Notes under the pieces: generated by a model
Told to the model about the DNA's origin: nothing
The model's input: only the letters and a program-made list of their open reading frames with translations
Databases searched by the model: none
DNA from: Calothrix sp. NIES-2098
GTDB lineage: Bacteria > Cyanobacteriota > Cyanobacteriia > Cyanobacteriales > Nostocaceae
DNA: 64,000 nucleotides
NCBI GenBank assembly: GCA_002368175.1
Contig: AP018172.1
Span: 221,599-285,598, forward strand
Direction of reading: 5' to 3'
Position numbers and translations under genes: made by a program
Shown here: positions 14,599-18,025 of the stretch, in pieces
Position numbering within the stretch: position 1 is the stretch's first letter
Layout of the letters: each line of letters opens with the position of its first letter

Positions 14599-15742
14599 TA
14601 ATACCAATTCACGAAAAGCCTGATACAAATAAAGCATCCAGAATAAAACCCCAACCTGTAATAGAAGCAACAATGAAGTTGTTTAATTGCTCAAGGCGTT
14701 GCCAGATAGCTGTTCTTAACTCGTCTAAATTGGCAAAGCATTCCCAACTTAAATTTCTTTTAACTTCTTCCCATAACCTTTCAATGGGATTGACCTGGGG
14801 AGTATGTGGAGGTTGAAATAAGAAAATAATATTTTCGGGAATTTGAAGTGTCTGGCTTAAATGAAAAGCACCATTATCTAATTGAAGAATATGTATATCG
14901 TCTGGATATGTAGCCGCAAATTGTTCTAGAAAGATATTGAAACAAGCTGTGTTGAGATGAGAAAATTCCCAAATATAATACTCCCCAGTTAATGGTTCTA
15001 CTAAACCGTATAAATAGAAATTTTCTCTTCTCCATTGCATGATGCCGATAGGTTTAATGCCACAAAGCGTAATCAGTCTTCCTAATTCTGTTTTTAATCC
15101 TACACGGCTTTCATCACCACACCAGTATCTAATTCTTTTGTGTTTATCCTTTGGCTCTATAACGTGTTTTTTAATGACTTCTAGGTATTGTGGCAGTTTT
15201 TTTTAAATTCTGATTCTGCTTCTTCGTGATGTTTTATCCCTACTGCTCTTGGCACTTTTAATTTGGCTTTCATTCGATAACGTACTGTATCATGTACTAC
15301 TTTATATGATGCTTCTATTCCCTCCACTGCTTTTAGCCATGTTCGGATTTCTTCATAACTTTTAAATCCTTCTGGTTGTTCTAGTTCTTTTAAAAGTTGC
15401 TCTTTTGCTTCTGACTTAATAATTGGCGGTCGTCCTGTACTTTTTTTTATTACTAACAGACCTGTAATTCCTGATTGTGTATAAGCCTTTAACCATCGCT
15501 GTACTGTTACTCTTCCTCTGCCCAGAACAACACCTACATCCTGTATTGTTTTTACTTGTCCCATTTTCAGCAAATACAAAGCTTGTATTCTTTCACGGCT
15601 TGATGCGGTTTTTTGTTTTAACAGCAGTTCATGTAACTCTTCGACTGACTCTTTTATTTCAACTTTAGTTACTCCAGCCATTTTTATTGTTCATATTTAT
15701 TCCTTAATTATTTGTATCATACTTTTAGTTAATTGGTATAAC
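14599..15742 (-). mobile_element. IS630-family insertion sequence, about 1.14 kb
   Basis: Terminal inverted repeats: left TAATACCAATTCACGAAAAGCCTGATACAAAT, and right (reverse complement) TTATACCAATTAACTAAAAGTATGATACAAAT. A TA lies at the left junction. Encodes orfA (HTH) and orfB (DDE) in a -1 relationship. Confidence 0.8.
14609..15681 (-). CDS. IS630-family transposase. orfA (15181..15681, HTH) and orfB (14609..about 15211, DDE) are joined by a putative programmed -1 ribosomal frameshift at A_AAA_AAC
   Basis: orfA ends ...ESEFKKNCHNT*. The heptamer A AAA AAC (minus-strand, complement of 15197..15205) sits 12 nt before the orfA stop. The -1 frame is open from exactly this point and reads KLPQYLEVIKKH...CGDESRVGL...LQLDNGAFH...NPIERLWEE, a DD(~32)E motif. 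Confidence 0.75.
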
Positions 15743-15838: not shown

Positions 15839-18025
15839 TTAACTGACTGTAATCACAGTTGCTAAACTCTCGTTCGCTAACCTGTTAATTGCGGAGACTG
15901 CATAGGTTCCCGTCCCTACAGTGGCAAAGTTTGTCCCAGCAGATAAAACTCGTTGAATTACCCAGTTATCCCCAGTTTGGCGATAAAGCGCCCAAGAACG
16001 AACTGGTTGGTTATCACCAGGTTGCCAATTGAGTTTACCGTTAACATATTGCAATCCTGTGGGGGGTGCTGGTGGTGTTGTATCATGCCAAGGCAAAATA
16101 GGAGTTAGGGCGGGTTTGTTATAAAGCAGACTTTGGAATTTATCAGCAATTCCCTGGCTATTTTCCATCAATACACCCAAATTAAAGAAAATATTCCCCA
16201 AAGATAAAAGTCCAGCTTGGCTACGACTAATTATTACCTGCTTTTCAATCTCTTCACTCTCCCGACTCTTGTTGCTGGGTTCCGTTAAATTGTTACCAGC
16301 GTAAACGTGTTTTTGTTTTGTGTTTACTTGTGTCCACCACTTGAGTAAGGCAGAATAACTTTGTTGTGTTTGGTCGGTACGCCAGTAAAGTTGAGGTGCA
16401 ATGTAATCAATCCAACCTTGTTCTAGCCATTTTTTCGAGTCAGCGTAGAGTACATCGTAAGCATCTAAGCCAGTAATTCCTGATGGTTGTCCGGGGCGAT
16501 AAATACCAAAGGGACTAATGCCAAATTTAACGTAGGGTTTTGCAGCTTTAATTCCTTCAGCTAGACGCACCACCATGAGATTGACATTTTCTCTACGCCA
16601 GTCACCCAAGCTGAGTCCGCCACCAGCGTTTTTATAAGCTGCGTAGGTTTTGTTATCGGGGAAAGTTTGACCTGATATGGGATAGGGATAAAAATAATCA
16701 TCTAAGTGTACGCCATCGATGTCATAACGGCGCACAACATCAAGAATAACGTTGTAAGCCCGATCTTGAACAACTTTCAATCCTGGGTCCATCCACAGCT
16801 GATTACCCCATTTATAAACAACTTCGGGATTAGTTACAGCTATATGGGGGCTGACATTTGAACCTTGCTGGATTGAAGTTTTAGCGCGATAGGGGTTGAA
16901 CCAAGCATGAAGTTCAATATTGCGCTTGTGACATTCTACGATCGCAAACTCTAAGGGGTCATAAAATGGTTCTGGTGCTTTACCCTGAGTTCCTGTCAGC
17001 CAAGCACTCCAAGGTTCTAATGATGAAGCATACAAAGCATCGCCTTCTGGCCGTACCTGCAAAATTAAAGCATTAAAGTTCAGCTGCTGTAATTTGGTGA
17101 TAATTGCCAGTAGTTCCGATTTCTGCTGTGCAGCAGGTAGTCCAGCTTTGGAAGGCCAGTCACTATTCCAGACTGATGCTACCCAAGCCCCGCGAAACTC
17201 CCGTTGATGGCTTACCCTGACTGTATTAGATGGTACTGGGGTTGGTGTTGGCGTCGGCGTCGGTGTTGGCGTTGGTACTGGAATGGGTATAGGTGTTGGT
17301 GTTGGAATGGGAGTGGGTGTCGGCGTTGGGGTTGGTATTGGAATCGGTATCGGCGTTGGTGTAGGTGTCGGTGTTGGACTCGGTGTTGGAGTGGGTGCTG
17401 GCGTCGGTGGAATCACTAAGTAGGCAGAGGAAATTTTATCTGCTTGCCCTAGATACACCAAAGCTTGATAGACTATTACTGCGACATCAGCACGAGTCGC
17501 TGCGATATTTGGGTTAAGTAATTTAATATTTGGATAGCTAGCGACTAAACCTGCACTTGTGGCAATAGCTACCTGATTTTTAGCATAGTCTGCGATCGCA
17601 TTTGCATCTTGATAGAATTGCGACAATTTACTAACCAAGTCAGGTTTGATTTTAGTAGCAAGATCCAAGCCGTTGACTATCGCAACAAAAACATCTCCTC
17701 TAGAAATTCTATTGTCAGGACGAAAAGTGCGATCGGGATATCCACTAATAAATCCTGTCTCATAAGTTTTTTGAATAGCATTAAAAGCCCAGTGTTTAGC
17801 AGGTACATCGCTAAAAGGGACATATTGCCGCTTTGGAGGTACTGTAAAGACTGCCCCAATAATGGCAGCAAATTCCGCACGAGTTACTGAGTTATCTGGG
17901 CGAAAAGTCCCGTTAGGATATCCATTTATAATGCGACGCGCTGATAAAGCTTGAATAAATAAGCGTGCCCAATGGTTTTTAATATCCGAGAAAGGTGTAG
18001 AACTAGATACCATTGTGGATTGCAC
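15839..18025 (-). CDS. SLH-domain cell-surface protein with a GHL10 (DUF187/YddW-DigH-like) glycoside-hydrolase-like domain
   Basis: N-terminal region has three SLH-like repeats ([20 protein letters not shown]; [20 protein letters not shown]; ...). A Pro/Thr/Ile linker ([11 protein letters not shown]...) is encoded by tandem DNA repeats at about 17225-17410. Then [18 protein letters not shown]... and an (alpha/beta)8-like region typical of PF02638. Confidence 0.75.

Follow-up and report, generated by a model that had tools for sequence, protein, structure and literature searches.

Recoding of a split transposase gene at a poly(A) run is already known, having been described in 2005 for insertion sequence (IS) elements in Nostoc and Deinococcus. 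We have analysed an element of this kind in a 64,000-nucleotide stretch of the Calothrix sp. NIES-2098 genome (contig AP018172.1, positions 221,599 to 285,598), hereafter the window, in which coordinates are counted from the first letter. The element (14602–15738, minus strand; 1137 bp) is complete. To judge by its sequence, it is an ordinary, structurally intact IS630-family IS of the Nostocales. Its two open reading frames (ORFs), orfA and orfB, meet at a run of eight A's (A8). An earlier sequence-only reading of the window had proposed that a −1 ribosomal frameshift at a textbook A_AAA_AAC heptamer joins them.

The nearest described systems are those of Baranov et al. (2005). In the portions of that paper concerned with IS elements, those of Nostoc sp. 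PCC 7120 are said to differ only in a poly(A) run of 8–10 nucleotides, and elements of Deinococcus radiodurans to carry 9 or 8 A's at the same location (PMC1088944). Transcriptional slippage, productive on eight A's, is assigned there to this series, in which homologous elements have a run of 8, 9 or 10 at the same position (PMC1088944). The D. radiodurans elements belong to the IS630 family according to ISfinder (PMC11219805). They are ISDra3 (A9) and ISDra6 (A8), and their orfA and orfB are joined at a poly(A) run like those of the window element (PMC1088944, PMC11219805, in the portions describing them). The same portions of PMC1088944 do not state the family of the PCC 7120 elements, which we liken to the window element by description rather than by sequence. 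None of the PCC 7120 plasmids matched the window element.

Two further IS630-family elements bear comparison. ISHsp2 of Halomonas sp. ZM3 resembles the window element in having two ORFs, encoding a helix–turn–helix (HTH) and a DDE part, which are joined at a G-A9 motif; its capture in a trap plasmid shows that IS630-family elements with a split transposase can move (PMC3606827). It is nonetheless a distant relative, with a 4-bp TTAA duplication. A predicted stem–loop holds its motif in the loop, a structure that has no counterpart in the window element. For a Roseiflexus element of the family, Penno et al. (2015), as reviewed in PMC5009743, describe synthesis of transposase via programmed transcriptional realignment. 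That case differs in its motif, T5C5, and in the upstream nascent-RNA hairpin that drives loss of one C; the window element has no upstream hairpin. Outside the family, the insA/insB' junction of IS1 has the same A_AAA_AAC heptamer, no established stimulator, and a DNA-binding regulator that becomes fused to the catalytic part (PMC4066793). IS1 belongs to another IS family, however, and ribosomal slippage is demonstrated in IS1 and only a candidate in the window element. The run in IS1 is six A's, compared with eight here.

In the window element, by standard decoding, orfA (15681–15181, minus strand; TAG stop at 15183–15181) encodes a 166-amino-acid (aa) protein that contains the HTH DNA-binding part. 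The orfB frame (15202–14609, minus strand), −1 relative to orfA, contains 197 sense codons and a stop (14611–14609) and encodes the DDE catalytic part. This frame opens at 15202, within the A run and directly after a −1-frame TAA (ATT TAA AAA AAA CTG), and the two ORFs overlap by 21 nucleotides (nt). A −1 shift joins both frames to give a 357-aa fusion. The fusion contains matches to HTH_23, HTH_29 and HTH_32 (residues 26–130) and to Pfam DDE_3 (60.1 bits). Against the NCBIfam model NF033545 (transpos_IS630; cut-off 100 bits) it scores 204.7 bits in one match that spans the junction, with residues 31–334 covering model positions 2–299 of 299. The predicted catalytic triad is D190 (15115–15113), D269 (14878–14876) and E301 (14782–14780), with a D-to-E spacing of 32, and is conserved wherever homologues cover these positions. 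The IS630 assignment of the sequence-only reading, and its expectation of an HTH plus DD(~32)E fusion of about 350 aa, are both borne out by these results. The fusion also aligns gaplessly with single-ORF homologues, whose junction consensus is FKKKLP. In a protein search, the nearest database proteins were single ORFs of 357 aa with 68% identity, and most more distant homologues were single ORFs of 352–365 aa. The transposase matched none of the solved structures by sequence.

We considered independent translation of orfB and rejected it. Only two sense codons are open before the CTG that follows the A run, and the first ATG (15040) is past D190. Because this ATG lies after D190, independent initiation there cannot yield an active enzyme.

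The sequence at the junction is GAA TTT AAA AAA AAC TGC CAC AAT ACC TAG. Within it, the recoding site TTT AAA AAA AAC occupies 15207–15196 (minus strand), with the A8 run at 15204–15197 and the in-frame heptamer A_AAA_AAC at 15202–15196. The heptamer is in the zero-frame register, with 12 nt between it and the orfA stop. Thus, the position given for it in the sequence-only reading was correct, as was the statement that the −1 frame opens there.

The junction is strongly conserved. In genome and metagenome scans, 20 of the 23 relatives recovered at full length had the sequence TTTAAAAAAAAC unchanged, even at nucleotide identities as low as 67%. Carriers of the T3A8C motif include Nostoc, Trichormus, Aliinostoc, Fischerella, Calothrix, Brasilonema and Iphinoe, and number about 30 elements when further loci are counted. 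The codons flanking T3A8C vary freely among relatives. As an internal control, a Lys–Lys site elsewhere in orfA is encoded by AAA, AAG or other codons in the same relatives. Both ORFs were intact, with A8, in 12 of the 22 full-length relatives on genome contigs. For intact relatives, the median ratio of non-synonymous to synonymous substitution rates (dN/dS) was 0.16 for orfA and 0.09 for orfB, at synonymous divergences (dS) up to 1–2. The window element differs from its closest copy by 28 synonymous and 9 non-synonymous changes.

That closest copy is on plasmid C of Trichormus (Anabaena) variabilis ATCC 29413 (NC_007412.1, 114182–115321; L048 in our set of loci) and is 96.2% identical over its full length. 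It shares with the window element the same terminal inverted repeats (TIRs), the T3A8C junction, a 166-aa orfA, a 195-codon orfB and a TAA duplication. The two are set apart by about 45 substitutions, one 1-nt indel in the 5′ untranslated region and their genomic location. The window copy alone has A rather than C at position 9 of its left TIR, and a private second A8 run in orfA. Under the customary 95% threshold of sequence identity, they would count as isoforms of a single IS. RefSeq splits the plasmid C copy into two genes, AVA_RS28365 and AVA_RS28360, and has the 'IS630 family transposase' begin at the CTG that directly follows the A run. We regard this start as an annotation convenience, not as evidence of independent initiation.

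Not all relatives have eight A's. An A9 run occurs in L045, L046, L047, L053 and L060, which form a distinct subclade at 68–71% aa identity; the run is absent from all copies in the window element's own clade. The A9 junction reads GAA TTY AAA AAA AAA CTG, giving a single 357-aa ORF in L045, L046 and L047. L053 has A9 and a full 195-codon downstream frame, whereas in L060 the downstream frame is shortened to 86 codons. A neighbour-joining tree groups the A9 elements in one subclade, to which A8 elements are sister as well as outgroups, and in it the L045/L047 pair sits among A8 elements. An A7 run, with both ORFs otherwise intact (161 + 195 codons), is found in two relatives, L010 (Chlorogloeopsis sp. 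ULAP02) and L016/L057 (Trichormus sp. M33_DOE_039). These two are separated by a dS of about 0.45, with a dN/dS of 0.07–0.10. Either the A7 elements died recently or the mechanism of their expression tolerates a change of run length. Across the series, run length sets the ORF layout without other indels: A9 gives a single ORF, A8 the −1 arrangement and A7 a +1 arrangement.

Two more distant elements were also observed. L050, a single-ORF relative from Chroococcidiopsis, has no run and reads AAA AAA GAA. L051, on plasmid pP742401 of Gloeothece citriformis PCC 7424 (10 matching places), is a distant split IS630-family element. Its junction, TTT AAA AAA ACT TG, has A7 and no canonical heptamer in register, and its orfB is still in the −1 frame.

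The first issue to weigh is whether the split is functional at all. To judge from the conservation of the junction and of both frames, the two ORFs are a conserved and selected architecture and not mutational fragments, as the sequence-only reading had maintained, and the transposase is very probably made by programmed recoding of one kind or the other. Although it lacks a start of its own, the orfB frame has been kept under strong purifying selection in dozens of elements that transposed; hence, it must be expressed by recoding. The opposing view is that the split results from an inactivating 1-nt deletion (A9 to A8), that the functional form is the single ORF, and that the window copy and its relatives are dead or dying. 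It draws on the closest single-ORF relatives, which have exactly A9 at the junction, on the prevalence of single ORFs of 352–365 aa among more distant homologues, on the annotation of the 96% identical copy as two genes instead of one recoded gene, and on the private TIR substitution of the window copy. The sequence-only reading had itself named single-ORF copies as the observation that would make this a decayed element. Such relatives do exist, in the A9 form, but they are confined to the distinct subclade, and none is in the element's own clade. Decay is improbable in the face of the remaining data. A dead gene would not keep A8 in about 30 elements of many genera, at dS up to 1–2 and with an orfB dN/dS of 0.09. 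Because A8 elements sit both outside and inside the A9 subclade, A8 is old. In addition, the A8 elements have kept transposing, since their TIRs are intact and target duplications match in 20 of 29 insertions.

Some sequencing platforms often misjudge the length of homopolymers, and a true A9 could in principle have been read as A8. We give almost no credence to a miscall of this sort. Many projects have arrived at A8 independently in their assemblies, among them complete records of genomes and plasmids. One of these is the plasmid C record, in which the 96.2% identical copy has A8, and this rules out an assembly artefact.

How the frame is shifted is a harder matter. The sequence does not by itself decide between polymerase and ribosome, and 'textbook' overstates the ribosomal case. 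We infer the following course of expression. Standard decoding would give OrfA only, a 166-aa HTH protein that is probably a regulator binding the TIRs. A minority of expression events would enter the −1 frame within the 21-nt overlap to give OrfAB (357 aa; D190/D269/E301), the presumed active transposase. OrfAB would then cut at the TACCA...TGGTA ends and insert at T-N-A with a 3-bp duplication. If RNA polymerase slips, one untemplated A is added, so that the mRNA contains A9 and the junction is FKKK-LPQ. Ribosomal −1 slippage on A_AAA_AAC would give FKKN-LPQ and is a possible contributor. The two routes therefore predict different residues at position 162 of OrfAB, Lys for the polymerase and Asn for the ribosome.

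On present evidence we rate the chance that RNA polymerase slippage on the A8 run is the main route as about even. The junction has sequence features of a transcriptional realignment site, namely a conserved A8 run at the ORF junction and a run length that varies among homologues and changes the ORF layout. The occurrence of A9, A8 and A7 at one position in homologous elements speaks for slippage by the polymerase. Among the IS clusters of Sharma et al. (2011), as summarised in PMC4066793, transcriptional realignment was assigned for 22, ribosomal frameshifting for 12 and both for 9. Several considerations weigh against polymerase slippage. In most bacteria examined, slippage becomes efficient at nine A's, one more than the run here. 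The register of the heptamer suits −1 ribosomal frameshifting, and IS1 is a proven case of frameshifting on A_AAA_AAC in which no stimulator is established (PMC4066793). A conserved Lys codon plus the heptamer can explain the whole A8 run, as far as its sequence goes, so conservation does not separate the two mechanisms. Finally, the A7 elements may just be recently dead copies.

Alternatively, and we hold this tentatively, most OrfAB may come from programmed −1 ribosomal frameshifting. With tRNA-Lys occupying the P site and tRNA-Asn the A site, both tRNAs would slip one base back on A_AAA_AAC at low efficiency and, as in IS1, with no stimulator. The junction does contain a heptamer of the form X_XXY_YYZ in the zero frame, within a short overlap and close to the orfA stop, and this heptamer is invariant in relatives. 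Frameshifting is recognised in the IS630 family (PMC5009743), where ISFtu1 and ISHsp2 are described as needing it, and IS1 provides the precedent for the lack of an established stimulator. A stimulator is not obligatory for −1 ribosomal frameshifting.

No stimulator accompanies the heptamer, however. The sequence-only reading had suggested looking for a downstream stimulatory structure, and none was seen in single-sequence folds, in a consensus fold or in Rfam. The 120 nt downstream fold at −10.2 kcal/mol, with a z score of +1.29 against shuffled sequences. Upstream, the 86-nt fold (z = +1.71 against shuffles) gave no sign of RNA structure. The consensus fold of 11 relatives reached −3.15 kcal/mol with no covariation, and its sole recurrent pairing starts about 41 nt away. 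A scan of the junction region with Rfam gave no match, and there is no Shine–Dalgarno-like stimulatory element upstream of the heptamer. Thus, neither a hairpin, a pseudoknot nor a Shine–Dalgarno-like element is available to assist the ribosome. A_AAA_AAC is also weak in E. coli, where A_AAA_AAG shifts far more readily (PMC5009743). The A7 relatives, otherwise intact, need a shift of +1 or −2 and are beyond rescue by a −1 ribosomal shift. Moreover, the portions of the literature that deal with A8 and A9 elements of the IS630 family assign them to transcriptional slippage (PMC1088944, PMC11219805). Of the −1 ribosomal frameshift put forward by the sequence-only reading, the heptamer and its register stand. 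The ribosomal mechanism is not established, given that the site is equally an A8 homopolymer, lacks a stimulator and belongs to an A7/A8/A9 series.

We turn to the ends of the element, which we set by aligning it with related elements from 29 independent insertions. The left TIR (IRL; 15738–15708, minus strand) is TACCAATTAACTAAAAGTATGATACAAATAA and the right TIR (IRR; 14602–14632, plus strand) is TACCAATTCACGAAAAGCCTGATACAAATAA, which agrees with the family consensus. The TIRs are 31 nt long, with 27 of 31 positions matching; if flanks are included, the arms are 38 nt at 84%. The clade termini are TACCAWTTCAC...GTGAAWTGGTA, and the terminal TACCAWTTCAC is common to 45 left ends and 37 right ends of relatives. 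A size of 1137 bp with terminal inverted repeats is in keeping with the IS630 range of about 1.0–1.4 kb. The sequence-only reading had rightly recognised TIRs at both ends. It placed the element at 14599–15742, which is the correct location, but that span takes in the target duplication and the true ends are 14602 and 15738. Searches of the 64-kb window with blastn, tblastn and a TIR pattern found no further copies or solo ends of the element.

The target duplication is TAA on the plus strand. One copy (15739–15741) adjoins the transposase-proximal end and is a direct repeat of the other (14599–14601), which adjoins the distal end. Across 29 insertions of related elements, all 58 flanks read T-N-A. 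The middle base agrees between both sides in 20 of the 29 (chance 0.25 each; p about 8e-7). Because the flanks are T-N-A with the same middle base in so many insertions, the sequences imply that the clade makes a 3-bp TNA target duplication, not the TA that is canonical for IS630. The usual IS630 pattern, in which insertion at TA duplicates that dinucleotide, is not seen for this element. Membership is not excluded by this, since other members of the family deviate as well, ISHsp2 with its TTAA being one. We found no description of a TNA duplication in the literature on IS630.

Some features are private to the window copy, and several of them may count against its being a fully functional representative. 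Position 9 of IRL (window 15730) has changed from C to A, and C is found in 79 of 82 ends of relatives. Given this conservation, the transposase might bind or cleave that end less well. A private 1-nt deletion lies 6–7 nt upstream of the ATG. K218R and S336F are the only private substitutions at otherwise conserved residues. In orfA, a second A8 run (15448–15441, minus strand; GTA ATA AAA AAA AGT, register A_AAA_AAA) has arisen from two substitutions. All relatives are interrupted there, and the closest copy reads ACA AAA AAG. This run may be another slippery site in the window copy and, on either mechanism, would divert some expression into a dead frame. The same position in orfA served as the internal control for conservation of the junction run. 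The copy is coding-intact and its activity or mobility is possible. Hence, the suggestion of the sequence-only reading that it may be active holds for its coding capacity and is uncertain in view of the private substitution at a near-invariant TIR position.

The IS lies between an SLH/GHL10 gene (18025→15839) and a cupin gene (14381→13884), and all three are on the minus strand. About 100 nt separate it from the SLH/GHL10 stop on its upstream side, and the cupin start codon follows 220 nt downstream of it. A terminator-like hairpin and T-tract of the SLH/GHL10 gene (15797–15759, minus strand; 13 pairs, 6 GC) ends 18 nt before the insertion point. The IS had been placed next to the cupin gene, which is right, and directly upstream, in coding sense, of SLH/GHL10, which is not: it is downstream of that gene, beyond the hairpin. 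Read-out into 15839–18025, as envisaged by the sequence-only reading, is impossible in the sense direction, all three genes being on the minus strand. We looked for an outward or hybrid promoter toward the cupin gene and discarded the idea; 6 promoter-like matches were found, compared with 6.6 expected in shuffled sequences. In the window at 17200–17420, the Pro/Thr-rich linker (TPTPTP...) of SLH/GHL10 gives rise to long spurious ORFs on the opposite strand, with GVGVG and WRW repeats.

The closest chromosome is that of Nostoc sp. RF31YmG, which is about 90% identical, syntenic for SLH/GHL10, cupin and GST, and without the insertion. Its intergenic region is rearranged, with about 240 nt and a 186-aa ORF that are absent from the window, and it also holds a scaffold gap, so that it offered no clean empty site. 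In RF31YmG (MTAX01000017.1; L073, 1600–1930), an IS-end-like sequence, TAATACCAATTTGAAAAATGAT, lies just past the SLH/GHL10 stop and is followed by a scaffold gap of N's. The extra 186-aa ORF before the cupin gene has no Pfam match. The intergenic region between SLH/GHL10 and cupin is a variable spot.

For the neighbouring genes, an effect on SLH/GHL10 is unlikely because that gene ends at its own terminator before the insertion is reached; a polar or read-out effect, if there is any, would hit the cupin gene. Annotation should join the two ORFs in a single recoded transposase gene, rather than record a pseudogene or two independent genes. For genome dynamics, the window copy is, as read from its codons, intact and may be mobile. 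The element is effectively an isoform of one already present in sequenced Anabaena and Nostoc genomes. For wider biology it brings nothing new beyond the well-sampled A7/A8/A9 series and the TNA duplication in an IS630 clade. It is unlikely, in our estimate, that both of these have their fullest meaning, with poly(A) length (A7, A8 or A9) acting as a heritable dial of transposase output via RNA polymerase slippage in a Nostocales clade that inserts with a TNA, not a TA, duplication. Were the dial real, even the A7 elements would be functional. A true TNA duplication would mean that, within the IS630/Tc1/mariner superfamily, this clade cleaves its target with another stagger.

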